64,000 nt of DNA from contig CAVQFQ010000005.1 in assembly GCA_963711835.1 (NCBI GenBank), forward strand, positions 320,001-384,000, written 5' to 3'. Made by a program: the position numbers and the translations under genes. Of this stretch, positions 19,255-59,363 are shown piece by piece. How positions within the stretch are numbered: the stretch's first letter is position 1; each line of letters begins with the position of its first letter. The notes below the pieces were generated by a model. The model saw only the letters and a program-made list of their open reading frames with translations, ran no database searches and was not told the origin of the DNA. This stretch comes from an uncultured delta proteobacterium. GTDB taxonomy: Bacteria > Desulfobacterota > RBG-13-43-22.

Positions 19255-21336
19255 ATGACGATGGTTAAGGCAAAACATGATGTTGATGTTCTTGAAAAAT
19301 GCCCGACGGGCATCAAGGGTCTCGATGAGATCACGAAGGGAGGGCTTCCGAAAGGCAGGCCAACCCTGATCTGCGGCAGTGCGGGTTCCGGCAAAACACT
19401 TTTCGCCATGGAGTTTCTCATGCGGGGCGCCATGGATTACGGAGAACCCGGGGTCTTCATGACCTTCGAGGAGACGCCGGAGGATCTCGCGAAGAACTTC
19501 ATCTCCCTTGGTTTTGATCTCCATGACATGATGTCGCGTGGTCTCATCGCAACGGACCACGTCTACATCGAGCGAAGCGAGATTGAGGAGACGGGTGAGT
19601 ACGACCTGGAAGGATTGTTCATCCGCCTGGGGAATGCCATTGATTCCATCGGAGCGAAGCGGGTTGTCTTGGATACCATAGAAGCACTTTTCTCCGGGCT
19701 GTCTAATGCCGCTATCATTCGGGCAGAGCTTCGCCGGCTTTTTCACTGGTTGAAAGACCGCGGTGTGACGGCCATCGTTACGGGGGAAAGCGGCGACAAG
19801 ACCCTGACACGCTACGGGCTCGAAGAATACGTCGCCGATTGCGTGATCCTCCTCGACTTCCGCATCGAGGAGCAAATTTCCACCCGCCGCCTGCGTATTG
19901 TCAAGTACCGCGGCTCATCTCACGGCGCCGACGAGTATCCCTTCCTGATCGACGAGAGAGGCCTCTCTATCCTGCCCATCACTTCCCTGGGGCTCGACTA
20001 CCCCGTTTCCACGGAGCGCATCTCCACGGGCGTCCCCAAGTTGGATGCCATGCTTGATGGGAAGGGGTTCTACCGGGGCAGCACCATCCTCGTCTCCGGT
20101 ACAGCGGGCACAGGCAAAACAAGTTTGTCGGCTACCTTTGCCGACGCCGCCTGCCGGCGAGGTGAGCGCTGCCTGTATTTTGCCTTCGAGGAATCGCCCA
20201 GCCAGATCATCCGGAACATGGGCTCCATCGGCATGGATCTCGCCCGGTGGGTGAAGAAGGGGCTTCTCAAGTTTCATTCAGCCCGGCCTTCGCTTTACGG
20301 CCTGGAGATGCATCTTGTCACCTTCCACAAGGTGATCGAGGAGTTCAATCCCCAGGTTTTCATTGTAGACCCGATCAGCAACCTGAGCGCCGCGGGAACA
20401 GCATCAGAGGTCAAATCCATATTAACGCGCCTGATCGACTATTTGAAGATGAAAAAGATCTCTACTTTCCTTACGGACCTCACCCATTTTGGAGGCAGCC
20501 TTGAACACACGAGCGAAGAGATATCTTCTCTGATCGATACGTGGCTTCTCCTCCGGGATATCGAACTCAATGGGGAACGCAACCGGGGCCTCTACATTTT
20601 GAAGTCCCGCGGCATGGCCCACTCCAACCAGATTCAAGAGTTCCTGCTCACGAACCAGGGCATTGACCTTATCGACATCTATACCGGTTCCGGCGAGGTA
20701 TTAACCGGCAGTGCCCGGGCAGCCCAGGAAGCCGGGGAAAAGGCCTCTGAGCTGGCACGCCGGCGTGAGGCGGATCGCAGGCTCCGCGAGCAGGAGCGCA
20801 AGAGGAAGGCCCTGGAAGCAAAGATCGCAGCCCTCCGTGCCGAGTTCGATGTGGAATCTGAAGAGGTGCATTTGATGGCGGAAGAAGAGCGAAAAAGACA
20901 AGCTGTCCTGGCAGAAGACCGTTTAGAAATGGCGCATCTTCGCAAGGGGAAACCTTCAGCGTCCGGCGAAGCGCTCGAAAAAGAAGAGGGAAAGGAGAGT
21001 AAGATGAAAGCTGTCTCACCAGGAAAGGGGAAGAAAGCAAAGACCGATGCGACAGAAGAAATCTGGAATCTCCGGTTATATGTAGCCGGTCAGACCCAGA
21101 AATCGATTACGGCCTTTGCTAATTTAAAGAAGATCTGCGAAGAGCACCTCGCGGGGAAATACCGCATTGAAGTGATAGACCTTTTAAAGAATCCCCAGCT
21201 TGCCAAAGGGGACCAGATTATTGCCATACCGACACTGGTAAGGAAGCTTCCTGAACCGCTTAAAAAGATTATCGGAGATCTGGCTAACACAGAGCGCGTG
21301 CTGGTGGGACTCGACATTCGTTCTGTCTCCGGATGA
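19255..21336 (+). CDS. kaiC: KaiC (double RecA-like domain) in one frame with a C-terminal KaiB (internal RBS + ATG at 21004)
   Basis: GSAGSGKT and GTAGTGKT P-loops, [28 protein letters not shown]; then [11 protein letters not shown]...[22 protein letters not shown]. Confidence 0.93.
21004..21336 (+). CDS. kaiB: KaiB #1 (probably translated separately)
   Basis: AGGAG at 20993-20997, ATG at 21004; full KaiB signature. Confidence 0.85.
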
Positions 21337-21362
21337 TAAAATCAATTTTGGAGTAACAGCCG

Positions 21363-21707
21363 ATGGAGAGGAAAAGAGGGAAAACGAGCACTGAGGAATT
21401 CGAAAAAGCGGCAGCGAAGCGAGACCGGGCAAAGTACGTTCTTCGGCTGTATGTTACCGGGATGACCCCAAAGTCAACCCAGGCAATCGCCAATGTCCAG
21501 AAACTCTGTGAAAAACACCTGGCAGGCCGCTACGAACTCAAGGTGATAGACATCTACCAGCAGCCCAAGCTGGCCAAGGGAGAGCAGATTATTGCCACCC
21601 CAACGCTCATCAAGAAACTCCCCCTGCCGCTCCGGAAGCTCATCGGCGACATGTCGGATACGGAAAGGTTTCTTGTCGGCATCGATCTGAAACCCAAGAA
21701 TTCATGA
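21363..21707 (+). CDS. kaiB: KaiB #2
   Basis: [37 protein letters not shown]. Confidence 0.93.
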
Positions 21708-21717: not shown

Positions 21718-23698
21718 ATGAACAAATCGGATAGAACACGCCAGCAACTTTTGGATGAGTTGCAGGAACTCACATCGCGGATGATGGAAGCTGAGGAAAC
21801 TCTGCGCGCTATCCGAGGCGGTGAGGTGGATGGTCTGGTTGTCTCAACGGCGGAAGGAGATCGGGTCTTTACACTATCGGGCGCCGATCATCCTTACCGG
21901 GTCATGGTCGAAACCATGAACGAAGGGGCCGTCACCCTGGCCTCCGACGGCACGATCCTTTTCTGTAACCAACGTTTTGCAGATATCGTCAAAGGGTCTC
22001 TGGAAAAAGTAATAGGATCTTCAATCTACCAATACATTTCATCAACAGACCTTCAATTATTTGAGGCATTGCTTGAGCAGGGTTTAAAGGGGAACAGTAA
22101 GGGGGAACTGGCCTTACAGGCCGGAGGTGAAAATTCTGTACCTGTCTTACTTTCCGTAAGTCCCCTTCAGCGCACGGATATGCCCGGTGCGGTGTGCGCC
22201 GTAATGGTGGACATCACCGAGCGCAAGAAGATGGAGGAGGCGCTAAAGATTTCTGAAACTCGCTACCGCCGTCTCTTTGAAGCAGCCCAAGATGGAATAT
22301 TAATCCTCGATGCCGAGACAGGACAAATAGTGGATGTTAACCCATTCTTGTTAGAAATGTTGGGTTATTCACATGAGGAGCTCTTAGGGAAGAAACTCTG
22401 GGAAATTGGCACCTTTAGAGATATTGAAGCATCGAAAGCCACCTCTTCGGAATTGAAGAGCAAAGGATATGTTCGCTACCATGATTTACCGCTTGAGACG
22501 AAAGACGGACGGCCAATTGCCGTGGAATTTGTCAGTAATGTCTATCTGGTCAATCATCATAAAGTGATTCAGTGTAACATCCGCGACACCACTGAACGGA
22601 AACTTATAGCAGAGGCTTTAAAAAAATCTCACAACGAACTGGAACGACAAGCTGTCGAACTTCGGACGGCTCTTTCTGAAATCAAAACAATGAAAGACCA
22701 ACTCGAGGCCGAGAATATTTACTTCCGTCAAGAGAACAAAATGAAACATCAATTTGAGCATATTCTCGGGCAAAGTGATGGTCTCAAGTATGTTCTCTAT
22801 CGAGCGGAGCAGGTCGCTCCTCCGAACACAACGGTCCTCATCCTCGGTGAGACCGGTACGGGAAAGGAACTGATCGCTGCCGCCATCCACAACATGAGCC
22901 CCCGCAAGGATCGGCCGTTGATCACCGTCAACTGTGCCGCCCTGCCGGGCAATTTAATTGAGAGCGAATTGTTCGGCCGGGAGAAGGGGGCATTTACCGG
23001 GGCCGATACCCGGCAGATAGGCCGTTTCGAGGTCGCCCATGGTTCCACCCTTTGCCTGGACGAGATCGGAGAGCTGCCGCTGGAGGTGCAGGCCAAGCTA
23101 CTCCGGGTGATCCAGCATAACGAGTTTGAGCGCCTGGGCTCGTCCCATACCGTCAAAGTCGATGTACGGATCGTGGCAACGACCAATCGAAACCTTGAGG
23201 AAGAGGTCCGCAAGGGCCGGTTTCGGCAGGACCTTTACTATCGGCTCAACGTCTTCCCCATCACGGTTCCTCCTTTACGGCAGCGGAAAGAAGACATCCC
23301 GCTGATGGTCCAGGCCTTCATAGAACGGTATTCCAGGAAATTGGGCAAACAGATCACGTCGATCCAGAAGGAGACGATGAAGGCGCTGCAGGATTACCCG
23401 TGGCCCGGGAACGTCCGGGAGCTGGAAAGCATCATTGAACGGGCCGTGATCTTGTGCCCCGGGCCGGTCTTGCAGTTGGCAGATAAACTGGAAGTTTCAT
23501 CCCCCCCACTCTCATCCGCCGTGAGAACCCTGGAAGAGACGGAGCGAAACCAAATTCTTAAGATCCTTTCAGAAACCCGATGGCGCATCGAGGGAAAGGA
23601 TGGGGCCGCAGCGATCCTGGGCCTCCACCCGAGTACCTTGAGGGCCAGAATGCATAAGCTCGGGATACTCCCGGCCGAAGACCCGAAAGTCAGATTAA
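21718..23698 (+). CDS. PAS-PAS sigma54 enhancer-binding protein (AAA+, Fis-type HTH); probable true stop at 23698
   Basis: [55 protein letters not shown]; track ORF reads on to 23886 via a probable extra C at ~23670. Confidence 0.93.
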
Positions 23699-23710
23699 TT
23701 GTCCGGCACC

Positions 23711-23870
23711 CCTCAAAGGTCTCCTCAATATATGGAGGACCCACCAAATATGGAGGTCCAACTCATCGTTTCAACCTTCTTTGCTATTCTCTCCTATTAA
23801 TACAACTCCACGATATCAGGACTGATTCCAAACTTCTGCTTTTTTCGGATTTTTGGCAACCCCTTTGCAT
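23711..23870 (+). promoter_or_regulatory. sigma54 promoter module 1
   Basis: UAS CCTCAATATATGGAGG 23723-38 and CCACCAAATATGGAGG 23741-56; TTGGCAACCCCTTTGCA with GG 23855-6, GC 23867-8. Confidence 0.88.
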
Positions 23871-23882
23871 TAACTATTTTCT

Positions 23883-25301
23883 ATGATCCTGGTCGTCATA
23901 AGCATGAAGATTATCAAGCCGTTTTTATTGTTCTGGCTGTCGCTTTCCATTTTGAGCCTTAGCGGGTGTGCGTCCTTGCCGAATGTTTCTGAAAAAATTC
24001 AGGAAGCGCCCCTTAGCCAGAAATCTCCTCAAATCCTTTCGGCCAAAGGACTGTTGTCTCCCAAACAGAGCAAAGCCCTCATGGAACGACTGAAGCGATC
24101 CGTCGACCCGACGGATATGCTGCAACGTTATATCGCCGTAATAGAATCGGTGAGTGAAAGCCCCTTGACCAAAGGGAACAAAGTCACTTTGCTCGTTGAT
24201 GGTCCAGCCACTTATGCCGCCATGTTCAAAGCGGTAGAGAATGCCCGCGACCATATCAATCTCGAAACGTTTACCATGGAAGATATTGTAGATGAAACGG
24301 GGATGAAACTTGCCGATCTATTGTTACAAAAACAGGCGGCCGGTGTTCAGGTGAATATCCTTTATGACAGCCTAGGCAGTTACACTACTCCCGCCTCCTT
24401 TTTTCAACGCCTGCGCGACGGTGGGATTCAGGTGACCGAATTTAACCCGATAAATCCACTTAAGGCTCGCGGAAAATGGCGCTTGGCCAAATCGGATCAC
24501 CGCAAGATTTTGATCGTCGACGGCAAGGTCGCCTTTACCGGGGGCGTCAACATCAGCCAGGTTTATTCGAGCGGGCTTTCTGGAAGGCGGGAACAGGACC
24601 AGACCCAAATCCCATGGCGGGATACCGACGTTCGAATTGAGGGCCCGGCTGTGGCTGAGTTCCAAAAACTTTTTCTGGAAACGTGGCAGAGACAGATGGG
24701 TGCGAAGATCTCCGAACGGAATTACTTCCCCGATTTAATAAAAAATGAGGGAAATACTCTGGTGGGGGTGGTCGGCAGCAGTCCAGGAGAGGCCAACAGG
24801 ATTACTTTTATTCTGTATGTGTCCGCCATCACCTTTGCAGAAAATTCGCTTCATATGACCAATGCCTATTTTGTCCCCGACCACCAGACAGTAGATGCCC
24901 TCACGGAGGCTGCTAAGCGCGGGGTCGATGTGAAGATCATTCTTCCCGGAACCACCGATTCTTCGCTGGCCCAATATGCAGGACAATATTTTTATTCCGA
25001 GCTTTTGAAATCGGGGGTAAAGCTATACCGGCGTCACAATGTCCTCCTACATGCAAAAACTCTGGTCATTGACGACATCTGGGCGACAGTCGGCTCTACT
25101 AATATGGATTTCTGGAGCTTTTCAAGCAATGACGAAGTGAACGCGGTTATTCTGAGCCGCGAGTTTGCTATGGAAATGGAGAAGATGTTTGCCGCGGATC
25201 TTGCGGAGTCGGGCGAGATTCGACGGGAAGAATGGGAAAAAAGACCTCTGCTTTCCAAGATTCGGGAGTGGGCAGCCTATTTATTCTCACACTGGCTATA
25301 G
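23883..25301 (+). CDS. cls: Cardiolipin synthase / PLD-family protein with lipoprotein signal
   Basis: Two HKD motifs ([16 protein letters not shown]); LSGC lipobox; alternative start 23904. Confidence 0.88.
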
Positions 25302-25404
25302 AAAATCCCTCTTGCTGCAGGGGCGAGTTGCGGATTTCTTGCCCTACCCTGAAGGTAATATTTAATCTATGGGGATTTCAAAAGGTGCCGAGAGGAGAAA
25401 TCTC

Positions 25405-25983
25405 ATGAGCCTAAAGATAATCTTTTCGATTAGTCTCATAGAAGCCATTTCCTTGTTATTGATTTTTGGGTCCCTAGGTGAATCAGCAGAGTCTGACCGA
25501 CCGATAAGTTGGGCCACGCCGATCCAAATGCAAGGGGTTAGTAGTTTATATAAGATTACAGATTATCTCTATAGAAGTGATCAGCCAACCGAAGAAGGAA
25601 TGAAGAATTTTGAAAAAATGGGAATAAAGACCGTAATAAACCTGCGGACTTTCCATTCTGATTTGGATAAAATCAAAAAGACAGGATTGCTCCATGAAGA
25701 ATTAAGCGTAAAACCGTGGCATATTGAAGATGAAGACGTAATTAGAGTTCTGCAAATAATCAAAAAAAGAGAGAATGGTCCATTTTTAATGCACTGCTGG
25801 CGCGGAGCGGATAGACTCGGTCTTATGGTTGCGATGTTTAGAATTGTAGAACAAGGATGGACGAAAGATGAGGCGATTCAAGAAATGGTGAAAGGTGGGT
25901 ATGGATTTCATGCGACCTGGCGTAACATCATTGATTATGTACAGAATGTAGACGTGGAAAAAATACGAAAAGAAGTGGAATAA
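25405..25983 (+). CDS. Secreted tyrosine/dual-specificity phosphatase-family protein
   Basis: YRSDQP, KTVINLR, HCWRGADR (CX5R); AGGAG RBS. Confidence 0.82.
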   Translation: MSLKIIFSISLIEAISLLLIFGSLGESAESDRPISWATPIQMQGVSSLYKITDYLYRSDQPTEEGMKNFEKMGIKTVINLRTFHSDLDKIKKTGLLHEELSVKPWHIEDEDVIRVLQIIKKRENGPFLMHCWRGADRLGLMVAMFRIVEQGWTKDEAIQEMVKGGYGFHATWRNIIDYVQNVDVEKIRKEVE

Positions 25984-26074
25984 GAATCACTTACACATCC
26001 TGCGGAGATGCTATCGCAAGCACTCCGGCAGGTTTTTGCTCTTAGAATATTTATCTCGGAACAGGAGGGAAGCG

Positions 26075-26901
26075 GTGACTAATATCGGAATGCCCGCCTT
26101 CTGCTTAACCGTCAGGTCGTTTACGAGGGCGACGACGATCGGCCTGCTGGTTCTCGTGACCATGTTGTTAGGCCCTCCCCCGCTTCCGGCGGCTCCGGTC
26201 CCGGTGCGCTTCGTCGAGGGCGCCATACACGGTTTTCTCATGCTGCGCACAGTCGACGGCGCCCTCATTGCCTCGGGCGATCTCCTCCAAGTCGGCCGGG
26301 GGGAGGGGTCGAGAGCCGTACAGTGTTCCACTTCAAGGATGGGTCGTTATTCGACGAGACGGTGGTATTCACCCAGCAGCACGTATTTACCATGCAAAGC
26401 TACCACCTGGTACAGCGCGGGCCCGTATTCGCCGAGGACACCGAGATCTCGTTGGAACGGACCGGGAAATACCGCGTGAAAACCAGGGGCCGCAAGGACG
26501 GGCGGGAGAAGGGGCTTGAGGGCACACTCGAACTGCCCCCGGACGTTTACAACGGCATGGTTCTTACCGTCGTGAAGAATCTACCCAAGGAGGCCAGCGA
26601 GACCGTCCACATCGTGGCCTTTACACCCATGCCCCGGATCATCCAGCTGAAGCTGGCACCGAAAGGCGAGCACAAGGTGATGATAGGCGAACTCGCGAAG
26701 ACCGCGATCCAATATGTATTCAAGCCCCAGCTCGGGGTCTGGCTCAAGCTCTTCGCCACGCTGCTCGGGCGCGTGCCGCCGGACTACCACGCCTGGATCA
26801 TCGCTGACGAGGTGCCAGCGTTTGCGAGGTTCGAGGGACCGCTCTACACGACGGGGCCGGTCTGGCGGATCGAGCTGACGAGCCCCCGTTGGCCAGACTA
26901 A
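26075..26901 (+). CDS. Conserved-looking secreted hypothetical protein, frameshifted ~26300-26325
   Basis: Signal peptide + VRFVEGAIHGFL in frame 1 continues as FHFKDGSLFDETVVF...FEGPLY in frame 2. Confidence 0.6.
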
Positions 26902-26983
26902 AGGGGAGGGTGTTTTATCCTGGCCCCCTGAGTGGAAGGGAGTCTTAATAGATATTTAAAAATGAGGAAAGGAGAAAAATGGT

Positions 26984-27136
26984 ATGGGAATCATACTGAC
27001 CGTCATCTTAGTCATCGTGCTCATCGGCGCCCTGCCCACCTGGGGCCACAGTAAGTCCTGGGGACCCTATCCCAGCGGCGGAGTCGGATTGATCCTTCTG
27101 ATAGTGATCATCCTGTTACTACTGGGGCGGATTTGA
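26984..27136 (+). CDS. DUF3309-family small membrane protein, copy 1 (50 aa)
   Basis: LIGALPTWGHSKSWGPYPSGG; AGGAG RBS. Confidence 0.85.
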   Translation: MGIILTVILVIVLIGALPTWGHSKSWGPYPSGGVGLILLIVIILLLLGRI

Positions 27137-27320
27137 GGTAGCTTTGAGGCACATGAATTAGTCCTCATCACCAACGACAGGCCGCATTTTTGGAAGGTCT
27201 GAAGCAAACCCTGGCGAGGGACAGGGAATATCGTCTTCTGTGACGAGGCAAGCGCGAGCCAGCAGGTGCGCAACCGGATCTGGAAGAACGAATACGACTG
27301 ATTCGCTAAAGGAGATGCAA

Positions 27321-27521
27321 ATGATAAAACTGGGTAAGAGTGTCATGGCGGCATTAGTAATGGGTGCTCTGATTGCAGGGCTATTATGCTGCCAGAAAAA
27401 AGAGGGCCCCGTGGAGCGCGCCGGCAAGCAAATCGATAAGGCGGTAGAAAAAGCCGGGCAGCAGATCGAAAAGGCTGGTGAGAAAATCGAAGATACGGCA
27501 AAAGACGCCAATAAAAAATAG
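27321..27521 (+). CDS. Small lipoprotein with amphipathic helical repeats
   Basis: CQKKEGPVERAGKQIDKAVEKAGQQIEKAGEKIED; AAGGAG RBS. Confidence 0.75.
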   Translation: MIKLGKSVMAALVMGALIAGLLCCQKKEGPVERAGKQIDKAVEKAGQQIEKAGEKIEDTAKDANKK

Positions 27522-27787
27522 CCTTTACGAAGCGCGCCGATTTAACCTGCCGATGGCGTCCCTATCGGCCAAACCCGCTTCGTGCCTGCGTGGCTAAGCG
27601 TTTTGCTGTGGCCCGCCGTAGCGGATTTTGGCGGGCATGGTCGTAGTCGAGCATTGGTGCAAAAAGGGAATAGCGTATGTTGCGGTGTCCTATCGGTTGG
27701 AGCGGTGCTGGCTTTGTTCCAGCGTTTTCGTTGCATCCGACCGTTACGGCGCAGGCTGAGCTGTAACATTATAGGAGGTAGCCGTGT

Positions 27788-28129
27788 ATGTACGAACATC
27801 GAACGCGCCCTATCCTCAGTAGAGCCGATTTTGCAAAGCGCATCGCCCGCCATGTTATGCTGGCCCTTATTGTCCTCGTCTTGGCCTTGGGCATTGGAGT
27901 CGTCGGTTACCACTACCTGGGAGAGCTGGAATGGCTGGATGCACTGCTCAATGCTTCGATGATTCTGGGCGGAATGGGACCTGTGGATCCTCTGCATAAA
28001 CCGGTGGCGAAACTGTTCGCCTCCTGTTACGCCTTATTTTCAGGGCTAGTTTTCATCGGCGTGGCCTCCTTGTTGGTGGCGCCATTCGCCCACCGTTTAT
28101 TGCACCGCTTCCACTTGGATGAACGATAA
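27788..28129 (+). CDS. Small 2-TM ion-channel-like membrane protein
   Basis: GYHYL..WLDALLNASMILGGMGP..KLFASCYALFSG; lacks the TVGYG K+ filter. Confidence 0.7.
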   Translation: MYEHRTRPILSRADFAKRIARHVMLALIVLVLALGIGVVGYHYLGELEWLDALLNASMILGGMGPVDPLHKPVAKLFASCYALFSGLVFIGVASLLVAPFAHRLLHRFHLDER

Positions 28130-28253
28130 AAGAAACACTGCCTTGTCCAGGGGGAGGGGTCACCAAAGGGAGTTCTTATCATTCTGTTGGCCATGTCCTT
28201 TATCTTTGGCAAAGAATGAGTAATTTTTGAAATGAAGGTGAGAGGTGTATTTT

Positions 28254-30139: not shown

Positions 30140-30286
30140 TCTGAAAAACTTTAAGTTTATCCGGCTCTTTGCCCTTGAAAATAATTATCCGGAACAGAAT
30201 AAGGACTCAGGGAAATAACAATGTATGGGTTACTTTTTTAAACTTTGCAATCGTATGATTGCACATCTAAAAGCAGGAGGAGAGAA

Positions 30287-48777: not shown

Positions 48778-48861
48778 ATAGTTGGTGCGGTTTTTTCTTT
48801 AAGCTTTTAAACAACGGCTTGATACAAAACGGGCCATTTAGTTGCCGGAAAGGAGGCATCA

Positions 48862-49011: not shown

Positions 49012-49223
49012 CCATAAAAAATGACCTGATCGTGAAATAGGCGGCCGCTATCCTTATTTTGAGATTTATAAATCGAAGACGCTCCATTTAATCCCCATAG
49101 GTTATAAAGCGTGGCTTCGTTCAACCCGATGGTATACGGAATTCCATTAAGTTCTAATCCGTATACCATATCGTTTTCTGATTATTTTCTTTAACTTTAA
49201 TAGTTGGAAAGAAAGGAGAAGCC

Positions 49224-50972
49224 ATGCAACGCGCAAGAAAAACAGTCAAGGCGATTCTTGCGGTGCTCCATGCGGGCATAGTAATCGCTGTTAGTAGCTG
49301 GGCCTTTGCCCAAGGAGGCGGCATCTCAGGTTCCGTAAAGGATCTCTTAAACAACCAGGGAATTCAAGGGGTAATCATCACGGTAAAAGATGTAAGTACC
49401 GGTACGTTGGCAGGAACAGGGACTACTGATGCGTTGGGTAACTATTCAGTGGGTATTCCAGCCCCGGGGAATTACACCCTCGAGGCCTCAAAACCTGGAT
49501 ATAACAATATGTCGGCACCGGATGTGGTGGAGCTTTCCGATAAGACCCCGAACCGGACCGTAAATATCAATATGGGCGGAAAAGCGTGGTTGAAGTACAA
49601 GCCCGGGGTGCCGACATCGGCCCTGTCTTGGGAGACGGGGGCCGGCAAGAGCTATCTCATCCCAGCCCTCGAAATCCCGGGCTTCATCCTTCTCCTCAAC
49701 GGGTATGCCCGGCTCGCCTACCCCAACGAGATGTCTGGAGGGAAAAAAACCTACGACACGAACCTGTCAACCTTCTGGGACCACGTCGTCCACGGGCCCT
49801 GGGGGGTCGACCAGGACGCCTTCGCCGTGAACCAATTCGACCATCCGTATCAGGGATCCATGTACTATGGATTCGCGCGATCGGCCGGCCTCAATTACTG
49901 GGAGTCGCTCCTCTATACCAACGCGGGCAGCTTTCTCTGGGAAACATACGGGGAGAACACACCGCCCTCCATCAATGACCAGTTCGGCAGCGGCATTGCC
50001 GGGAGCTTCTTCGGGGAGGCGTTGTTCCGGATGGCCAGTTTGGTGCTTGAGGGCGATGGCGGCAAACCCGGGTTCTGGCGCGAACTGGGCGCGGCGATGA
50101 TTTCGCCACCCACGGGTTTCAATCGCCTTGCCTTCGGCAACCGGTTCAAGCCCGTATTTTCGAGCCATGATCCGGCCATCTTCTGGCGCCTGCGGCTCGG
50201 CGGAAGTTTGAATTCGGACCTGAACGACCAGGGCGGCTCGAGCACCATCAACCGGAGCGAGGTGACTGCGGACTACTCCATGGCCTACGGGCTCCCTGGG
50301 AAGCCCGGTTATAGCTATACGCGTCCTTTCGACTACTTCCATTTTGAATTCACCAGCGTCAGCACCGCAGATAACCCTTTCGATAACGTCATGATCCGCG
50401 GCCTCCTCCTCGGAAAGGACTACGAGGCAGGCAACGCCTATCGCGGGGTATGGGGCCTCTACGGCGGCTATGACTACATATCGCCGCACATCTTCCGCGT
50501 TTCAAGCACCTCCGTCTCTCTCGGTACTACCTTTCAATGGTGGCTCTCGCGAGCGGTAGCGCTCCAGGGCTCGCTCCTCGGTGGTCTTGGTTACGCTGCG
50601 GCCGGTAATGTCACCCAATTGGGTGAACGCGACTACCACTACGGCGTCGCCCCGCAGGGGCTCCTCGCGCTCCGCCTCATCCTTGGCGACAGGGCCATGT
50701 TTGACTTAACAGAACGCGCGTATTATGTAACCGGCTTTGGCGGCAGCGAACCGGGGGGAAGGGAGATCGTCAACCGCCTGAACATGGGATTCACCTTTCG
50801 CATTTTCGGCCGTCACGCCCTCGGGATCCAATACATCGCCTCCATCCGAAATGCGCACTATCCCGACCGGGCCGACAGTCACCAGACGGTGGGAACCGTC
50901 AGCCTCGTTTACACTTTACTTGGCAACACCCGGTTCGGCGCTGTCGAGTGGCGCGGCGCTGACAGCCGCTGA
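49224..50972 (+). CDS. Carboxypeptidase-regulatory-like domain + DUF3943-like outer-membrane protein
   Basis: GTTDALGNY..GNYTLEASKPGY; DQDAFAVNQFDHPYQGSMYYGFARS, PSIND. Confidence 0.72.
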   Translation: MQRARKTVKAILAVLHAGIVIAVSSWAFAQGGGISGSVKDLLNNQGIQGVIITVKDVSTGTLAGTGTTDALGNYSVGIPAPGNYTLEASKPGYNNMSAPDVVELSDKTPNRTVNINMGGKAWLKYKPGVPTSALSWETGAGKSYLIPALEIPGFILLLNGYARLAYPNEMSGGKKTYDTNLSTFWDHVVHGPWGVDQDAFAVNQFDHPYQGSMYYGFARSAGLNYWESLLYTNAGSFLWETYGENTPPSINDQFGSGIAGSFFGEALFRMASLVLEGDGGKPGFWRELGAAMISPPTGFNRLAFGNRFKPVFSSHDPAIFWRLRLGGSLNSDLNDQGGSSTINRSEVTADYSMAYGLPGKPGYSYTRPFDYFHFEFTSVSTADNPFDNVMIRGLLLGKDYEAGNAYRGVWGLYGGYDYISPHIFRVSSTSVSLGTTFQWWLSRAVALQGSLLGGLGYAAAGNVTQLGERDYHYGVAPQGLLALRLILGDRAMFDLTERAYYVTGFGGSEPGGREIVNRLNMGFTFRIFGRHALGIQYIASIRNAHYPDRADSHQTVGTVSLVYTLLGNTRFGAVEWRGADSR

Positions 50973-51239
50973 GCTGGGAAAGGAGAGGCTCCAGGTATTA
51001 AATTTAAACACTGCCGTGAAGAAAACATGAAACGTTGTCATCTCCGGTCTAACGTCCTGCTATTCGGAATGCTGGCCTGCCGTTTCACACGACATGGGGT
51101 CGACAGGACAGGGGACCGGTGGACGCATGTCCTCTTTAAATCCTGAGAAGTGTAGGGAAGGGAAGGAGTGATCAACCAGTCTTTTAAAGCCGGGTGCGGC
51201 TGGGCTTGATGCCTTAAATCGAAAACAAAAGGTATACCA

Positions 51240-51797
51240 ATGGATCAGAAAGTAAGTGAAATATCAGAAAAACTCTTTCGTAGGAAATATGAGCAGCTTA
51301 GTGAACGAGAAAAAAAAGTTGCTCGTCATCTTGCTGAAGGAACCCATATTTCGAGAAATACGGCTGAAGAATTTGATGATCAATTGACTTTTGGTCAGAG
51401 ATTAGCGGATCAGGTAGCTACTTTTGGAGGTTCCTGGACTTTCATCTCAATCTTTGGTGCTGTACTGTTTTTTTGGATTATGCTAAACTTTTTTCTTGTT
51501 ATCAAATTTGATAGTTCTTTCGATCCCTATCCTTATATTTTATTAAACCTGGTCTTATCTATGCTGGCTGCCATTCAAGCTCCGATAATCTTGATGTCTC
51601 AAAACCGACAGGCCTCTAAAGATCGCCTGAGTGCGGAACATGATTACGAAGTCAACCTAAAGGCGGAGCTTGAAATAATGGCCCTGCATGAGAAAGTGGA
51701 CTTGCTGAGAGAGAAACAATGGACTGAGCTTATTTCTATTCAACAGGAAGAGCTAAAACTATTGGGTCAATTAGTTGAAGGTCTAAATAAAGAGTAA
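51240..51797 (+). CDS. DUF1003 membrane protein
   Basis: FGGSWTFI, FDPYPYILLNLVLS, QAPIILMSQNRQ. Confidence 0.9.
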   Translation: MDQKVSEISEKLFRRKYEQLSEREKKVARHLAEGTHISRNTAEEFDDQLTFGQRLADQVATFGGSWTFISIFGAVLFFWIMLNFFLVIKFDSSFDPYPYILLNLVLSMLAAIQAPIILMSQNRQASKDRLSAEHDYEVNLKAELEIMALHEKVDLLREKQWTELISIQQEELKLLGQLVEGLNKE

Positions 51798-51845
51798 TGA
51801 ACCGCAGGTTAGCCCGGCCCACCATTTATGAAGGGAATATTCATC

Positions 51846-54122
51846 ATGGAAAAAGGATCGCCCCATTCGACCATCAACCGCATTGGGTTCATCGGCAACT
51901 ACCTGCCGCGCAAGTGCGGCATCGCCACGTTTACCACCGACTTATGTGAGGCCATCGCCGCCGAATACGAGGGCACGACCTGTATTGCCCTGCCCGTTAA
52001 TGACCTCGAGGCCGGTTACGCCTACCCGGCCCGCGTTCGCTTTGAACTGACCGAGAAGGATATTGACTCCTACCGCCGCGCCGCCGACTTCCTGAATATC
52101 AACAGCGTGGACCTCGTCTGCCTGCAACACGAATACGGCATCTTTGGCGGGCGGGCCGGCAGTCACATCCTGGCTCTCCTTCGTGAATTGCGCATGCCCG
52201 TCGTGACGACCTTCCACACCATTCTGCAGGACCCCGACCTTGATCAGCAACGGGTGTTGGAAGAAGTTGCGGCCCTGTCCGATCGGTTGGTGGTTATGAG
52301 TCAGCGCGGCAGGGAATTCTTACAAAAAATCTATGGGGTCCGGCCGGAGAAGATTGATTTCATCCCCCACGGCATCCCTGATGTGCCCTTTATGGACCCC
52401 AGTTTCCACAAAGACCTTTTTGGCGTTGAGGGCAAAACCGTCTTACTCAGTTTTGGTTTGCTCTCAGCGAACAAAGGGATCGAAACGGTTATTGCCGCTC
52501 TGCCCGCCATTTTGGCCCGCCATCCGAACGTGGTCTACATCATCCTTGGCGCCACCCATCCCCACGTCTTGCGGAACGAAGGCGAAATGTATCGGCTGTC
52601 CCTGCAATGGCTGGCTCAGGAGAAAGGTGTGGAAGGTCAGGTGATCTTCTACAACCGCTTTGTCAGTTTGGAGGAACTGGTCGAATTCATCGGCGCGGCG
52701 GACATTTATATCACCCCTTATCTCAACGAGGCCCAGATCACCTCGGGTACCCTGGCCTACACCCTGGGAGCGGGCAAGGCCGTGATTTCGACACCCTACT
52801 GGTATGCGGAAGAGATGCTAGGCGGAAAACGGGGAGCCTTAGTGCCCTTTCGCGATCCGGCGGCCTTGGCTGAGCAAGTGATCAACTTGTTGGACAACGA
52901 GTCCAAACGCCACGCCATGCGCAAACGGGCTTATCTGTTCGGGCGGGCGATGATCTGGCCTATTGTGGCGCGAAGCTACATGGAGAGTTTTAAACGAGCC
53001 CGGGACGAACGTCGTCATTTCACCCCGTCGGGCTTTGCGGTCAAACCGCTCGATAAACGTCCGGGCGAACTTCCCCCTCTCAAACTCGATCATTTATACC
53101 TCATGACGGACGACACCGGCATGTTGCAACACGCCACTTTCACAATACCCAACTATCGGGAGGGTTATAGCATCGACGACAACGCCCGGGCCCTGATCGT
53201 CAGCACTCTTTTGGAGGAACTGGGCAGCGGCGAGGCCTTCAAACTGGCTTCCCATTATCTCGCTTTCATCGGGTATGCCTTTAATACAGAGACCGGGCGA
53301 TTTCGCAATTTTATGGATTACCAGCGTAATTGGTTGGAAAAAAACGGTTCCGACGACAGCCATGGCCGCACCTTGTGGGCCTTGGGCACCGTCTTGGGCC
53401 GCTCAAACACGCCGGCCCTCCAGAGTATGGCCGGCTGGGTGTTCGAGCAGGCCTTGCCGGCCATTCTCAAGACCACCAGCCCCCGGGCCTGGGCCTTCGC
53501 CCTCATCGGTATCCATGAGTATCTAAGGCGTTTTGAAGGTGACCGCAGGGCCAACCAGGTTCGGGATGAATTGGCCGGGCGATTGCTCACCTTATATAAC
53601 AACAGCCGTTCGGATAAATGGTGCTGGTATGAGGCCGGTTTGACCTATTGCAACGCTGCGCTGCCACAGGCCCTGCTTATGTGCGGCCAATGGATCCCGG
53701 ATAAGGCCATGACCGAGGCCGGACTGGAGTCGCTCCATTGGCTGGCCGACTTGCAGCGGGCTGACGCGGCTGGGGGTCATTTTGTACCCATCGGCTCCAA
53801 TGGCTTTTATCAACGCGGTGGTGAACGGGCCCGGTTCGATCAACAGCCGGTCGAGGCCCAAACCATGGCCTCCGCCTGTCTCGAAGCTTACCGGAGTACC
53901 GGAGACGAACGCTGGCGCAAGGAGGCCCGCCGCGCCTTCGACTGGTTCCTCGGGCGCAACGACTTGAACCTGCCCGTTTACGACCCGACGACGGGAGGTT
54001 GCCGGGACGGCCTCCATCCCGACCGCCCAAATGAAAATCAAGGCGCGGAGTCGACGCTCGCCTTTCTTCAGACCTTATTGGAACTGCGCCTGGCTGAGAA
54101 CGCCCTTCAGCCGACCGCTTAA
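51846..54122 (+). CDS. GT4 glycosyltransferase fused to C-terminal glycosidase-like helical domain
   Basis: YLPRKCGIATF, QHEYGIFGG, QITSGTL; GYSIDDNARAL, FDQQPVE, NQGAES. Confidence 0.85.
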   Translation: MEKGSPHSTINRIGFIGNYLPRKCGIATFTTDLCEAIAAEYEGTTCIALPVNDLEAGYAYPARVRFELTEKDIDSYRRAADFLNINSVDLVCLQHEYGIFGGRAGSHILALLRELRMPVVTTFHTILQDPDLDQQRVLEEVAALSDRLVVMSQRGREFLQKIYGVRPEKIDFIPHGIPDVPFMDPSFHKDLFGVEGKTVLLSFGLLSANKGIETVIAALPAILARHPNVVYIILGATHPHVLRNEGEMYRLSLQWLAQEKGVEGQVIFYNRFVSLEELVEFIGAADIYITPYLNEAQITSGTLAYTLGAGKAVISTPYWYAEEMLGGKRGALVPFRDPAALAEQVINLLDNESKRHAMRKRAYLFGRAMIWPIVARSYMESFKRARDERRHFTPSGFAVKPLDKRPGELPPLKLDHLYLMTDDTGMLQHATFTIPNYREGYSIDDNARALIVSTLLEELGSGEAFKLASHYLAFIGYAFNTETGRFRNFMDYQRNWLEKNGSDDSHGRTLWALGTVLGRSNTPALQSMAGWVFEQALPAILKTTSPRAWAFALIGIHEYLRRFEGDRRANQVRDELAGRLLTLYNNSRSDKWCWYEAGLTYCNAALPQALLMCGQWIPDKAMTEAGLESLHWLADLQRADAAGGHFVPIGSNGFYQRGGERARFDQQPVEAQTMASACLEAYRSTGDERWRKEARRAFDWFLGRNDLNLPVYDPTTGGCRDGLHPDRPNENQGAESTLAFLQTLLELRLAENALQPTA

Positions 54123-54137
54123 CCTAAAGGACTATCT

Positions 54138-55163
54138 ATGCGCATTGCGATGCTGTCACCGATTGCCTGGCGCACGCCACCGCGACATTACGGCCCCTGG
54201 GAAAGCGTGGTCTCCCTTTTGACCGAGGGGCTGGTCTCGCGCGGTCATGATGTTACCCTCTTTGCAACCGGTGATTCGGAAACAAGCGGCAAGCTGCATG
54301 CCGTCTGCGCCCGGGGCTATGAAGAAGACCCTTCCATTCTGCCAAAAGTATGGGAGTGCCTGCATATTTCGGAACTCTTTGAGCATGCGGACGATTTTGA
54401 TATTATTCATAATCATTTTGACTTTTTGCCCTTGACCTATACCGGCCTTGTCACCACCCCGTTCGTGGCCACCATTCACGGCTTTTCATCGCCCGGGATT
54501 TTACCTGTTTACAAAAAATATAACCACAAAGTATTTTATGTTTCCATCAGCGATGCCGACCGGTCTCCGGATCTTGACTATATCAAAACCATCCATCACG
54601 GCCTTGATATGAAGCAGTTTGATTTTCAGCCTGAACCGGAAGATTATCTCCTCTTTTTCGGCCGCATTCACCCCGACAAGGGTGCCAGAGAGGCCCTTGA
54701 AATTGCCAGGGCCTGCAATAAAAAGCTGATCATGGCCGGAATCATTCAGGATGAGGCCTACTATCACCAAGACGTCGAACCGCACCTGGACGAACAAACT
54801 GCGGTCTATGTCGGTAGCGTCGGGCCGATTCAGCGAAACCGGCTGCTTAAGAAGGCCTATGCGCTTCTCCATCCCATAAATTTCAATGAGCCTTTCGGAC
54901 TTTCTGTTATAGAGTCCATGGCCTGCGGCACCCCCATAATCGCCTTTGACCGGGGGAGCATGCCTGAACTGATCGAAGACGGCAAAACCGGTTTTCTTGT
55001 TAACACTATCGATGAGGCCATAGACGCTGTGGCTCATATAAAAGAGATAGATCGAGCCTGCTGTCGCCGCCATGTTGAACAGCACTTCACCGTCGATCGT
55101 ATGGTTGAAGAATATATTCAGGTCTATGAAACCATTCTTAAAAAGAGAGGAACCCCGAAATAG
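54138..55163 (+). CDS. GT4 glycosyltransferase
   Basis: PPRHYG, GRIHPDKG, EPFGLSVIESMACGTP. Confidence 0.9.
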   Translation: MRIAMLSPIAWRTPPRHYGPWESVVSLLTEGLVSRGHDVTLFATGDSETSGKLHAVCARGYEEDPSILPKVWECLHISELFEHADDFDIIHNHFDFLPLTYTGLVTTPFVATIHGFSSPGILPVYKKYNHKVFYVSISDADRSPDLDYIKTIHHGLDMKQFDFQPEPEDYLLFFGRIHPDKGAREALEIARACNKKLIMAGIIQDEAYYHQDVEPHLDEQTAVYVGSVGPIQRNRLLKKAYALLHPINFNEPFGLSVIESMACGTPIIAFDRGSMPELIEDGKTGFLVNTIDEAIDAVAHIKEIDRACCRRHVEQHFTVDRMVEEYIQVYETILKKRGTPK

Positions 55164-55166
55164 ACG

Positions 55167-56108
55167 ATGACACCACAGGCTCCCCTTATAAAACGTTATA
55201 AAAAAAACCCCATTCTCACCAAAGATGATGTCCCCTACCCTGTGGCCACGGTCCATAATGCCGGTATCGTCAAGCAAAACGGCCGCTACATTATGCTTTT
55301 CAGGTCGCATTTGCACAACGGGCGCTCTATCATCGGCCGGGCCGACAGTGCGGATGGGTTTTCCTTTACGGTCCACCCGGAACCCTTTCTCACCCCGGCC
55401 AAGGACACCATTTTTGCGGCCTATGAGGAGTACGGAGTTGAGGACCTGCGCATTAACCCTATGGAGGGCGAATATCTTCTTACCTACAGCGCCTACTCCC
55501 GCCACGGGGTGCGCATCGTGCTTGCCCGAACAAAAGACTTTAAAAGCATCGAGCGCGTCGCGCTGATCACCCAGGCCGACCTTCGCAATGTGGTTATTTT
55601 CCCCGAGAAATTCCAAGGACGCTATGCGCGTCTGGACCGGCCGCATTCCGAAATTTCACCCTGGTCCATCTGGATTTCTTATTCCCCGGACCTGGTGCAC
55701 TGGGGCGATTCACGGGTGATTATGAAGCCGGTCCCCTATCACTGGGATGAAATGAAAATCGGGCCCGGAGCACCGCCCTTTAAAACCGACCAAGGCTGGC
55801 TGCATATTTACCATGGCGTCTTTAAGACTATGGCTGGTGCGGTGTATCGCCTTGGCGCGGCTCTGCATGATCTTAATGATCCGGGGAAAATCATCGGCGT
55901 TTCCGATCAGTGGATACTGCAGCCCGAGGATCCCTGGGAAGTGAGCGGTTACGTACCCAATGTTGTTTTTACCTGCGGCGCTGTTCCGGAGGACGACGGG
56001 TCGATAAAAATTTACTGGGGCGGCGCTGATACCGTCATGTGCGCCGGCACGGCAGTGATTGATGACCTGGTCCAGTTATGTCTCACCAAGACCAGGGCGG
56101 CCCTGTAA
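55167..56108 (+). CDS. GH130 beta-mannoside phosphorylase/glycosidase
   Basis: NPIL, YGVEDLRI, RLDRP, KIGPG, GYVPNVVF, YWGGAD. Confidence 0.88.
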   Translation: MTPQAPLIKRYKKNPILTKDDVPYPVATVHNAGIVKQNGRYIMLFRSHLHNGRSIIGRADSADGFSFTVHPEPFLTPAKDTIFAAYEEYGVEDLRINPMEGEYLLTYSAYSRHGVRIVLARTKDFKSIERVALITQADLRNVVIFPEKFQGRYARLDRPHSEISPWSIWISYSPDLVHWGDSRVIMKPVPYHWDEMKIGPGAPPFKTDQGWLHIYHGVFKTMAGAVYRLGAALHDLNDPGKIIGVSDQWILQPEDPWEVSGYVPNVVFTCGAVPEDDGSIKIYWGGADTVMCAGTAVIDDLVQLCLTKTRAAL

Positions 56109-56161
56109 CCAAGGCGAATAATAAATCTAAAACTAACCAAACCTATTTGAAATTTTGGGAT

Positions 56162-56218
56162 GGTCATAGGGGGTCTTGTTTTTGGGGATTGTCCAAAAAA
56201 ACAAGACCCTCTATGACC
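56162..56218. repeat. ~22-bp-stem inverted repeat; arm related to the elements at 1.9 and 14.1 kb
   Basis: ggtcatagggggtcttgttttt / aaaaacaagaccctctatgacc. Confidence 0.6.
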
Positions 56219-56293
56219 CTGGTATAAAATGTTAGAGATGAATTCTCAGATGATCTAATGTAAGAATCTAACCCTATCAAGGAGTCCTGTCTA

Positions 56294-57772
56294 ATGATCC
56301 AAAAACAATTATCCCAGTTAATAGTCAAACGAAAAAGGAATAAAATCTTAAGGGACCCTTCACGCGTCATTACCCGGCTTCATTTGCCGGACGGTGAGTA
56401 TCGCATAGCTAAGATCATTCAACGCATAGTGGATTTGCCTAACACAACAGCCAAAGACATTCTCGCCCAAATATTGATTGATTTTTCCGAACGACACAAA
56501 AACATCAAAGGTATTTTTGCGCGTCACCTGAATGAGGTCAATGACTATATTCCTCGGGAAGCCGTGCTCAGCGAGACCAAAATGGCTCTCATCGGGGCCT
56601 ATTTTACTATGGAGTACTCCATTGAATCGGCGGCCCTTTTTAACCCTTCTATTGTCCCGCATCCTGATCAAAACCATCTTGACCAGGGCAGCTTGCGCTT
56701 TATCATGAGCCTGCGGGCGACCGGCGAAGGTCATGTTTCCTCGATTGTATTTCGCAGCGGTATTCTTGACTCGGACAACAGGGTTCTCTTCAACCCGACC
56801 AGCGATTACGTCGAAACGCCAGAGGTCCATTTGGATTCGGTTTACGACCGGCATCTCTTTGATCTGAAGCTTCTCGAAATGGGAGCCAGCAATGAGGTAA
56901 CCGCTCATCTTCTTAACCAGTTGCCGGAAAATTTCACCTATAACGAACTAAAAAATAAAATTGAATCGCTTCGCACGACCCCGGTTTTCCCTATTATGGT
57001 CCAAAATAAGATCTTCGAGGTTATGTACTGGCTTATCAATTCTAATTATGAAATAAACTTCCACCCCAATCATCGAATTTCCGAACGGGTTATCTTTCCC
57101 GTTTCCAAAAACGAAAGCAACGGTATTGAAGATGCCCGCTTCGTGAAATTTATCGATGACAATGGTGAGGTTACCTACTACGCAACCTATACGGCTTATA
57201 ATGAGTTGACCATTCTGCCACAGCTGATTACCACCAAGGAATTTCTTAAATTTAATATAGTAACCCTCAATGGCAAGGCAGTACAAAACAAAGGCATGGC
57301 TCTTTTCCCACGTAAAATTGACGGCCAATACGTCATGCTTTCCCGTCAGGACGGTGAAAACAATCACATCATGTTCTCAGACAATATCCATTTCTGGCAG
57401 GAGTCTAAAATCATCCAGGAACCGACACGTCCCTGGGAATTTATTCAGATCGGCAACTGCGGCTCACCCTTGGAGACCGATGAAGGATGGCTGGTACTCA
57501 CCCACGGGGTCGGGCCCATGCGTCAATATTGCATTGGCGCCATACTCCTTGATCTTGAAAATCCGGCAAAAATCACCGCCCGTCTGGAAGAACCGTTACT
57601 GTCACCGCACGAGGAAGAGCGCGAGGGGTATGTCCCCAATGTCGTTTATAGCTGCGGTGCGATTATCCACAACAACGAGTTGGTCATTCCCTATGCCATG
57701 GCTGATGTCATGTCTGGCATAGCAACCGTTGGAGTAAGGGATTTAATCAATTCCATGCAACCGGTAGTTTAA
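56294..57772 (+). CDS. GH130-family protein, long form
   Basis: ESAALFNPS, GIEDARF, NKGMALFPR, QIGNCGSP, GYVPNVVYSCG. Confidence 0.88.
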   Translation: MIQKQLSQLIVKRKRNKILRDPSRVITRLHLPDGEYRIAKIIQRIVDLPNTTAKDILAQILIDFSERHKNIKGIFARHLNEVNDYIPREAVLSETKMALIGAYFTMEYSIESAALFNPSIVPHPDQNHLDQGSLRFIMSLRATGEGHVSSIVFRSGILDSDNRVLFNPTSDYVETPEVHLDSVYDRHLFDLKLLEMGASNEVTAHLLNQLPENFTYNELKNKIESLRTTPVFPIMVQNKIFEVMYWLINSNYEINFHPNHRISERVIFPVSKNESNGIEDARFVKFIDDNGEVTYYATYTAYNELTILPQLITTKEFLKFNIVTLNGKAVQNKGMALFPRKIDGQYVMLSRQDGENNHIMFSDNIHFWQESKIIQEPTRPWEFIQIGNCGSPLETDEGWLVLTHGVGPMRQYCIGAILLDLENPAKITARLEEPLLSPHEEEREGYVPNVVYSCGAIIHNNELVIPYAMADVMSGIATVGVRDLINSMQPVV

Positions 57773-57983
57773 TGATCTTGGGATGGGTTCAAGAAGCCTG
57801 CGGGCCAACCTCGAACGTTTTCCAAACAAAATCGTGGGGCATTGAAAATCCGCGTACTCCCTAATACGATCATGAAGCAGAGCCTCCTCTTTATCATTAA
57901 GTGGCCAGATGCCCCTACAGCCCTCGAAGTGAGTGGAATTTCCCTGAACGCCAGGGCCCCGCTCGATCCGTCGCGAGTATAAT

Positions 57984-59363
57984 ATGACCAATCCATCAAT
58001 TTTCAAAGCCTACGATATCCGCGGCGTTTACGGTGTTGATTTGGATGACACAACCGCTTACAAGATCGGCTATTCTTACGCCCAAATGAGAAAAAAAGAA
58101 TGGCCACTAGATCGGCCGCTGCAAATAGCGGTTGCTGCGGATATGCGCCTTTCTTCGCCGACGCTCAAGGATAAATTAATTCAAGGTCTGATCCATGGCG
58201 GTGTGGATGTTGTGGATATCGGACTGGCCTCCACTCCGACTTTTTATTTCGCGGTAGCTAATTACAATTACGACGGCGGAGTCTTGGTTTCGGCCTCGCA
58301 CAATCCCAAGGAATATAACGGCTTCAAGCTGGTGCGCCAAAAGGCCTTGCCGATGAGCGGCGAAGGCGGTCTATATGAGTTAAGGGAGATGGTGGCCAAA
58401 CTGGAATTAGCAAACATCAAGCCGCCGGCAACGGCCAATTCTTTGTCAGCTAACGGGGATGTACTGGCGGATCAGGTAGCGCATGATCTTAAATTTGCCG
58501 ACTCAAAAGAAATAAATAAATTTAAAATTGTGATCGATCCGGCCAATGCCATGGGCGCGCTTTATTTTGACGAGCTATTCAAAAATATTCCGCAATTGAA
58601 AATTATCCGCATGAATTGGGAATTGGACGGCTCTTTTCCAGCGCACGAGGCGGATCCGTTCAAAGAAGAAAACCTGCGCGGCTTATGCGCGCGGGTCAAA
58701 CAAGAGAATGCCGATTTAGGCATAACTACCGACGGCGACGGCGACCGCATATTTTTTGTAGACAATAACGGAGAGCCGGTGGAGCCGGGAATAACGCGGG
58801 CGATCCTTTGCAAAATATTTTTGCGCGAAAACCCAGGCGCGAAAATCTGCTATGACATCCGGCCGGGAAAGATTACCTATGATACTATTATTGAGAATGG
58901 CGGCCAGCCGATAGTCACGCGGGTCGGGCATTCGCTTATTAAGGAAAAAACCATTGAAGAAGGCGCGGTATTTGCCGGCGAATCATCCGGACATTTCTTT
59001 CTGAACATGGGGGAAGAGGGCTGTTATGAAGTGCCTTTAATTGTCACTTTAAAAATTCTGGCCGAGCTGTCGCTAAGCGGACTAAATTTCAGCGAAACTA
59101 TCAAGCCGTATAAAAGATATTTTCATTCCGGCGAAATAAACTCACGCGTCGAGAATGCGGCCGAAAAAATTAAAGAGATAAAAGAAAAATATAAAGACGG
59201 ACAACAAAACGATCTAGACGGCATTACCATTGAGTATCCGGAATTCTGGTTCAATGTCCGCGGCTCCAACACCGAACCGCTTCTCCGCCTAAATCTGGAG
59301 GCCAAGACCAAAGAGCTAATGGAAGAAAAACGAGATGAAGTGCTGGGTATAATAAGAAAATGA
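57984..59363 (+). CDS. manB: Phosphomannomutase/phosphoglucomutase
   Basis: FKAYDIRG, SASHNP, DGDGDR, GESSGH, RGSNTEP. Confidence 0.88.
   Translation: MTNPSIFKAYDIRGVYGVDLDDTTAYKIGYSYAQMRKKEWPLDRPLQIAVAADMRLSSPTLKDKLIQGLIHGGVDVVDIGLASTPTFYFAVANYNYDGGVLVSASHNPKEYNGFKLVRQKALPMSGEGGLYELREMVAKLELANIKPPATANSLSANGDVLADQVAHDLKFADSKEINKFKIVIDPANAMGALYFDELFKNIPQLKIIRMNWELDGSFPAHEADPFKEENLRGLCARVKQENADLGITTDGDGDRIFFVDNNGEPVEPGITRAILCKIFLRENPGAKICYDIRPGKITYDTIIENGGQPIVTRVGHSLIKEKTIEEGAVFAGESSGHFFLNMGEEGCYEVPLIVTLKILAELSLSGLNFSETIKPYKRYFHSGEINSRVENAAEKIKEIKEKYKDGQQNDLDGITIEYPEFWFNVRGSNTEPLLRLNLEAKTKELMEEKRDEVLGIIRK

Follow-up and report, generated by a model that had tools for sequence, protein, structure and literature searches.

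Organisation of the Kai locus and its promoter cassettes

The stretch analysed here, hereafter the window, comprises 64,000 nucleotides of contig CAVQFQ010000005.1 from an uncultured delta proteobacterium. On its + strand it carries a Kai locus composed of four genes, in the order kaiC, kaiB, kaiB and a gene for a sigma-54 activator with two PAS domains, an AAA+ domain with the GAFTGA motif and a C-terminal helix-turn-helix (HTH) domain. It is followed by an island of five promoter cassettes, each in front of a run of co-oriented genes (Table 1). An earlier account of this DNA made without database searches, the sequence-only reading, had placed kaiC-kaiB-kaiB directly upstream of a PAS-PAS activator with GAFTGA, and both the open reading frames and the domain searches bear this out.

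The five cassettes align over about 180 nt with 62-77% identity, spacers included, and each is composed of two 16-bp palindromic boxes, 18 bp apart, and a -24/-12 site (GG-N10-GC). The GG of the -24 element starts at 23855, 30124, 32170, 39495 and 46406, and the box centres are found 106.5-108.5 and 124.5-126.5 bp upstream of -24. The sigma-54 pattern has five matches in the window (0.19 expected) and the box pattern fifteen (3.1 expected), numbers reached by none of 100 shuffles in a test that is generous because the patterns were derived from the cassettes themselves. Alignment and pattern counts together thus bear out the five homologous -24/-12 promoters with the same paired palindromes which had been read from the letters alone.

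A profile built from the five cassettes detected no sixth one in the 3.9-Mb genome. A box matrix trained on other genomes only gave 71 matches genome-wide, about the random expectation (10-26 per Mb), and among these a downstream sigma-54 site is present only at the ten boxes of the island; no further regulon member with box and sigma-54 site was found elsewhere in the genome. Strict sigma-54 consensus sites number 33 in the whole genome, and five of them are within the island. The consensus over 82 cassettes of other genomes is a perfect palindrome, CCTCAATATATTGAGG.

Many cassettes carry the 3' end of the activator gene and the first codons of an ABM gene, and the cassettes have probably spread by duplication. 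Among the cassettes of other genomes, 22 of 73 have the ATG of the ABM gene or its remnant 2-4 nt past the predicted start site, as have three of the five here (23883, the 39522 region and 46433), and this ATG is a candidate for the start of a leaderless mRNA. The cls gene of the window opens with ABM codons.

The activator and its pairing with the cassette

The AAA+ domain of the activator is recognised by PF00158 (E 1e-71), with Walker A, GAFTGA, Walker B, arginine finger and sensor II all located, while the best NCBIfam model for the protein is FhlA, below its cut-off. Further features expected of an enhancer-binding protein are present: the C-terminal HTH, predicted sites about 100-150 bp above the -24/-12 site and rpoN in the genome. 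The genome also encodes three HU/IHF-family genes and about twenty sigma-54 activators, only one of which has an HTH of this type.

The relationship between HTH and cassette was followed in 80 loci from species genomes, the best 80 of at least 372, and activators were counted only where 350 nt of sequence followed the gene. Among 65 activators with an HTH identity to the window protein of 70% or more, 53 have a cassette right behind them, and among the six below 70% none has; several of the twelve non-matching activators above this limit show weaker boxes by eye. The cassette therefore tracks the HTH subfamily, a comparative result that strongly supports the pairing of activator and cassette and lends weight to the view of the cassettes as sigma-54 enhancer-promoters of this activator. 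It is very probable, to judge from these counts, that the HTH binds the palindromic boxes.

Four FhlA-like activators with an HTH 56-62% identical (L093, L124, L125 and L126) show, by eye, other paired repeats directly behind the stop codon, possibly binding sites of their own. In three further loci (L110, L122 and L127) no cassette is present directly behind the Kai-linked activator, and a second activator with the same type of HTH is found further downstream.

The Kai proteins and the reading frames of the assembly

The KaiC structure nearest to the window protein is that of Rhodobacter (Cereibacter) sphaeroides (8DBA, E 4e-195), with which the two serines and the tail align, and the structural features of the KaiC2 or R. 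sphaeroides type are found: a double ATPase domain, two serine phosphosites and a C-terminal coiled-coil tail. No KaiA, as required for a KaiABC circadian clock, was found in the genome, which is 89% complete.

The assembly joins KaiC to the first KaiB in a single frame of 693 amino acids (19255-21336). Near 20961 the window is two nucleotides short of three of the four aligned relatives and one short of the fourth; insertions near this position are also seen in RNA-run contigs of related organisms, and kaiC and kaiB are separate genes in relatives G010, G013 and G020. A natural KaiC-KaiB fusion as the state of the family was rejected on account of these separate genes and the extra bases at the junction. 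Similarly, the activator frame is 722 amino acids long and overruns cassette 1, whereas the protein has 659 amino acids in G010 and G020 and exactly this length in 71 of the 120 best homologues. Compared to all four aligned relatives, the frame is extended by a single additional base near 23672, and the activators of relatives stop at the position matching 23696-23698; the HTH is intact despite the overrun. Both fusion and overrun are frameshifts relative to these genes, with assembly error as the likelier cause, because unrelated genes of the window are also split or frameshifted, malQ, queF and tex among them. The affected stretches are 11439-12416 (a flavoprotein, by eye), 16119-17623 (malQ), 17911-18585 (queF), 26036-26901 (an unknown gene) and 60514-62782 (tex).

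A Kai-linked segment at the N-terminus of the activator

Ahead of its PAS domains the activator carries an unnamed segment with the core AIRxGEVD. It has no Pfam match, the search of PDB sequences matched the PAS part only, and a search of the protein atlas returned only unnamed clusters. Among the 80 loci of relatives the segment is present in 31, all 31 with kaiB, while kaiB or kaiC is found in none of the 49 loci without segment, 32 of which contain a high-identity activator preceded by 1.5 kb or more of sequence. The 401 genomes of the phylum gave 31 segment matches, for 30 of which the locus was fetched; kaiB is upstream in 26 of 27 strong matches, and the remaining one is located at a contig edge; the three degenerate matches have neither kaiB nor other kai neighbours. 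Of 80 metagenome loci chosen with a distant query, 70 extend for 450 nt or more upstream of the segment gene; kaiB is present in 68 of these, and kaiC in one of the other two. All these loci are akin and do not count as independent cases, but the link spans phyla and output types.

The output domains behind the segment vary. The 45 complete metagenome proteins include 42 histidine kinases (HWE and HisKA_2 kinases among them), one SpoIIE phosphatase, one sigma-54 activator and one protein with PAS only, whereas 109 of the 120 closest homologues of the window protein have the activator domain, the rest listing kinase or LuxR-type domains. The fusion of the segment to a SpoIIE phosphatase domain is located in L220:3875-5257; SpoIIE-type phosphatases feed SigB cascades. 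On plasmids the arrangement kaiC-kaiB-(kaiB)-segment protein was seen in all five records opened of thirteen matches, and the HWE kinase beside kaiBC on plasmid pB of R. sphaeroides 2.4.1 starts with the segment plus PAS (39% identity). Together, these associations suggest that the segment ties the activator to kaiB. Prediction of a complex of both KaiBs with activator residues 2-173 gave a score of 0.02 with controls that did not fold, and carries no weight in either direction as regards binding.

Genes behind the cassettes

The target families proposed by the sequence-only reading are borne out by Pfam and NCBIfam: cls, RNB, lmo0937, LTXXQ/Spy, BON (two), DUF3309 (two), AI-2E, YihY, YtxH, CsbD, a Usp fragment, FtsH, ABM, an ElaB-like DUF883 protein, GT4 (two) and GH130 (two). 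The BON/OsmY, CsbD, YtxH and ElaB families are typical targets of RpoS, SigB or EcfG in general stress responses, and the presence of this set is what a classical general-stress regulon would lead one to expect. The targets are thus of the general-stress type as judged by family, and a stress role of the island is moderately supported. The runs extend up to 13 kb behind their cassette with all genes co-oriented, and control of the distal genes is a candidate assignment; scans for sigma-70 promoters and terminators stayed at shuffle level and do not delimit operon ends.

Table 1. Positions of the Kai locus, the promoter cassettes and the gene runs in the window
Feature	Position	Strand	Remarks
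kaiC, KaiC2/R. sphaeroides type	19255..21002	+	two ATPase domains, S424-S425 phosphosites, coiled-coil tail
first kaiB	21004..21336 (ATG 21004)	+	domain match, comparison with relatives
second kaiB	21363..21707	+	separate conserved subtype, N-terminal helix-like extension
sigma-54 activator, FhlA-like	21718..23886	+	Kai-linked segment, two PAS, AAA+ (GAFTGA 22987-23004), HTH
unnamed Kai-linked segment	21757..21890	+	AIRxGEVD core 21808-21831; activator residues ~14-56
cassette 1	23723..23869	+	boxes 23723-23738, 23741-23756; -24/-12 site 23854-23869
cassette 2	29991..30138	+	boxes 29991-30006, 30009-30024; -24/-12 site 30123-30138
cassette 3	32038..32184	+	boxes 32038-32053, 32056-32071; -24/-12 site 32169-32184
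cassette 4	39362..39509	+	boxes 39362-39377, 39380-39395; -24/-12 site 39494-39509
cassette 5	46275..46420	+	boxes 46275-46290, 46293-46308; -24/-12 site 46405-46420
run 1	23883..29729	+	cardiolipin synthase, tyrosine-phosphatase-like protein, frameshifted unknown gene, DUF3309, small lipoprotein, membrane protein, RNase II/R
run 2	30245..31476	+	lipoprotein, lmo0937-family protein (30936-31082), lipoprotein
run 3	32359..39292	+	Spy/LTXXQ, BON, DUF3309, DUF6600 with proline-rich repeats, AI-2E transporter, YihY
run 4	39558..46246	+	YtxH, triple BON, CsbD, Thivi_2564 family, Usp fragment, acetyl-CoA hydrolase-GNAT, FtsH
run 5	46433..59363	+	ABM, lipoprotein, ElaB-like, DUF3943, DUF1003, two GT4, two GH130, phosphomannomutase; distal genes tied by co-orientation only

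Six sigma-70 matches are present in the genome: an RpoD-sized protein, RpoH and four ECF factors. Neither RpoS nor SigB was found among the sigma factors of this 89% complete genome, and RpoS exceeded the cut-off in none of 21 genomes, with RpoS-sized near-matches only in two other families. From this complement it is plausible that a sigma-54 regulon takes the place of RpoS.

Some further details of the runs and of the surrounding DNA may be mentioned. The DUF6600 gene ends with five proline-rich repeats of 114-117 nt (36334-37092). Two more lmo0937-like small membrane genes are found at 40749-40931 and 48862-49010, one of them degenerate and below the cut-off and the other recognised by eye only. 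The second GH130 gene and the phosphomannomutase gene (56294-59363) have 46-49% GC, compared to 53-58% in the adjoining glycosyltransferases, which suggests a separate acquisition. Long intergenic inverted repeats at 14137-14329, 1822-2191 and 56162-56218, one of them perfect over 33 nt, are possibly miniature mobile elements.

Relation to described systems

An operon of kaiC, kaiB and a PAS/histidine kinase gene is already in print (PMC4794148). With the KaiBC operon of R. sphaeroides and Rhodopseudomonas palustris the window shares a KaiC2 without KaiA, its two serine phosphosites and its coiled-coil tail, and the third gene of the R. sphaeroides operon begins with the same N-terminal segment followed by PAS. 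It differs from both in its two kaiB genes, in an output protein that is a sigma-54 activator with HTH and not a kinase, in the predicted binding sites and targets adjoining the locus, and in its host, a non-phototrophic anaerobe. KidA of Synechococcus elongatus is likewise a multi-PAS protein and has been shown to bind fold-switched KaiB, but has a GGDEF/EAL output and acts on the period of the KaiABC clock; the same work describes PAS genes beside kaiBC outside cyanobacteria (PMC9478674).

GAFTGA activators with sites at least 100 bp above the -24/-12 element are shared with known sigma-54 regulons, both FhlA-like ones and those of Desulfovibrio vulgaris, where one regulator, DVU3305, is listed under general stress response (PMC4641369). 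No link to Kai is given in that paper, where 'kai' occurs only within an author name; here one cassette is repeated five times in front of BON/CsbD/YtxH/ElaB-type genes. KaiC has been linked to stress resistance and stress fitness in Pseudomonas (10.1101/2022.01.26.477890), Methylorubrum (PMC8069551) and Legionella (as cited in PMC5520375). The alphaproteobacterial stress response is driven by HWE/HisKA_2 kinases. With RpoS, SigB and EcfG responses the island has in common its target families, typical of them, and with the Kai-linked cases a KaiC homologue; it differs in that neither RpoS nor SigB was found in the genome. The described Kai routes run via kinases or LabA and not via a sigma-54 activator. 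A search of the literature, mostly of titles and the beginnings of abstracts, found no description of a Kai-linked sigma-54 activator, of the segment or of the box, and tables of the RegPrecise type could hold the motif. The kaiC-kaiB-PAS/kinase operon is known, and what appears to be new is a direct sigma-54 output in place of the kinase.

Interpretation

We favour, with a probability of about 0.55, the reading that the island is a sigma-54 general-stress-type regulon under one activator, the activity of which is predicted to be set by KaiC and KaiB via the N-terminal segment. As the co-occurrence of HTH and cassette suggests, the activator would bind the palindrome with its HTH, oligomerise on the two boxes, loop to the sigma-54 polymerase and open the promoters. 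The steps before this are proposed with less confidence: KaiC2 may read the ATP/ADP ratio as in R. sphaeroides, KaiB may bind KaiC2, and either the KaiC-KaiB complex or fold-switched KaiB may contact the segment and the first PAS domain and alter the activity of the AAA+ domain. If so, energy shortage, not time of day, would be the likely trigger. A precedent for such a contact is the binding of fold-switched KaiB by the PAS domains of KidA (PMC9478674).

Several observations weigh against this reading. Of 12 same-family genomes (completeness 76-100%), seven carry the cassette and eight a close HTH, while KaiB is present in only two of the twelve and in two of the seven with cassette. Stress markers, which were picked from this window and counted in related loci, follow the cassette in 11 of 15 loci with Kai, but they do so in 16 of 28 without Kai too, compared to 6 of 31 for the upstream side. 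One genome (G006, 93% complete) carries a cassette but no close HTH, two others (G001 and G009) a close HTH and no cassette by BLAST, and as cassette 1 begins in the 3' end of the activator gene the link between HTH and cassette could in part be plain linkage. The distance from box to -24, which counts in its favour, is 108.5-109.5 bp in 68 of the 79 cassettes of other genomes with a good sigma-54 site, and 98.5 bp, one helical turn shorter, in two, but the 82 cassettes were retrieved by a profile containing the spacers, which favours equal spacing. To this are added the frameshifts in kaiC and activator of the window copy and the fact that the PAS contact of KidA tunes the oscillator, which is an input role (PMC9478674).

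Since many relatives have this activator subfamily, the cassette and the targets but no Kai, Kai is best seen as an optional and swappable input, and the regulon appears to be defined by HTH and cassette with Kai as one plug-in. Sister activators would use the same cassette with other PAS or receiver inputs, Kai being interchangeable with these; a scan of 33 non-Kai sisters recognised PAS inputs in 31, a receiver domain in one and nothing in the last. A quick tree of 61 rows, with L058 labelled Kai by hand because of a broken frame and rows cut at contig starts left out, has 16 changes of the Kai label compared to 18.3 after shuffling (71 of 500 shuffles as low; two changes forced by strong branches), which hints weakly at a scattered label. 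Kai is the only candidate input in this genome, as there is a single activator of this type. What the sequence-only reading had proposed, a general-stress programme run by sigma-54 with Kai as input, is in accordance with the comparative data as far as cassettes, stress families, rpoN and the tie of segment to kaiB are concerned; Kai gating, for which co-occurrence speaks, is not supported as the defining feature, given cassettes and targets without Kai. Across relatives the segment goes with kaiB (31/31) and the cassette with the HTH (53/65), but KaiB was not seen in five of the seven cassette-bearing genomes of the family.

The regulon could be real without being gated by Kai, in which case the activator would sense a PAS ligand of its own and the segment would feed back on KaiB as KidA does, or serve as a scaffold. 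KidA PAS domains stabilise fold-switched KaiB and shift the period without output domains (PMC9478674), and most non-Kai sisters have only PAS inputs before the same cassette. We nevertheless give this explanation a distinctly smaller share of our confidence: the segment keeps its place next to kaiB although the output domain behind it varies between kinase, phosphatase, LuxR-type and sigma-54, so that a receiver of a Kai signal fits better than a modulator, and degenerate segment copies have no kai neighbours. Less probable again is a true daily hourglass, with an island that is switched according to the time of day or by energy cycles of a tidal or diel kind. The KaiBC of R. sphaeroides times 24 h from ATP/ADP swings (10.1101/2022.11.28.518275), and the window KaiC keeps its phosphosites and coiled-coil tail; the relatives, however, belong to anaerobic Thermodesulfobacteriota of sediments and wetlands, for which a light input is not evident, KaiA was not detected in the 89% complete genome, and many kin have the same regulon without Kai.

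An equally improbable explanation is that duplication and recombination in a mobile island that collects genes have produced the cassettes mostly as by-products, and that this copy of the island is decaying. The likeness of the cassettes extends to the spacers, they often take along activator and ABM ends as described above, gene order varies among relatives, and the window contains several frameshifts and gene remnants. Against mere by-products, boxes and -24/-12 sites are far better conserved than the spacers and keep a helical phasing; against decay, frameshifts are also found in unrelated housekeeping genes that lie beyond the island, as assembly error would produce them, and the activator has its full length in most of the best relatives. 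The regulon under a single activator, with KaiC and KaiB as its predicted input, remains the reading we prefer.

Significance

The locus is real, conserved and well defined. A wider generalisation, which we regard as possible but clearly speculative, is that the AIRxGEVD segment might be a universal output socket of KaiC2-KaiB, and that such systems might sense energy charge and feed it into general stress responses. The route would be via HWE/HisKA_2 kinases in Alphaproteobacteria and via a SpoIIE phosphatase in other groups, and in RpoS-less Thermodesulfobacteriota it would lead directly to a sigma-54 activator that runs a fourth, undescribed response type. KaiA-less KaiBC systems pose the question of what their output is, and the locus offers a candidate one-step chain of KaiC, KaiB, activator, DNA site and promoter that could be rebuilt from purified parts. 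As the segment is common to the kinase beside the structurally solved KaiBC of R. sphaeroides, the same test is feasible in a model organism. Apart from Kai, the locus suggests that anaerobic sediment bacteria in which no RpoS was detected have a stress regulon run by sigma-54, with a defined predicted site.

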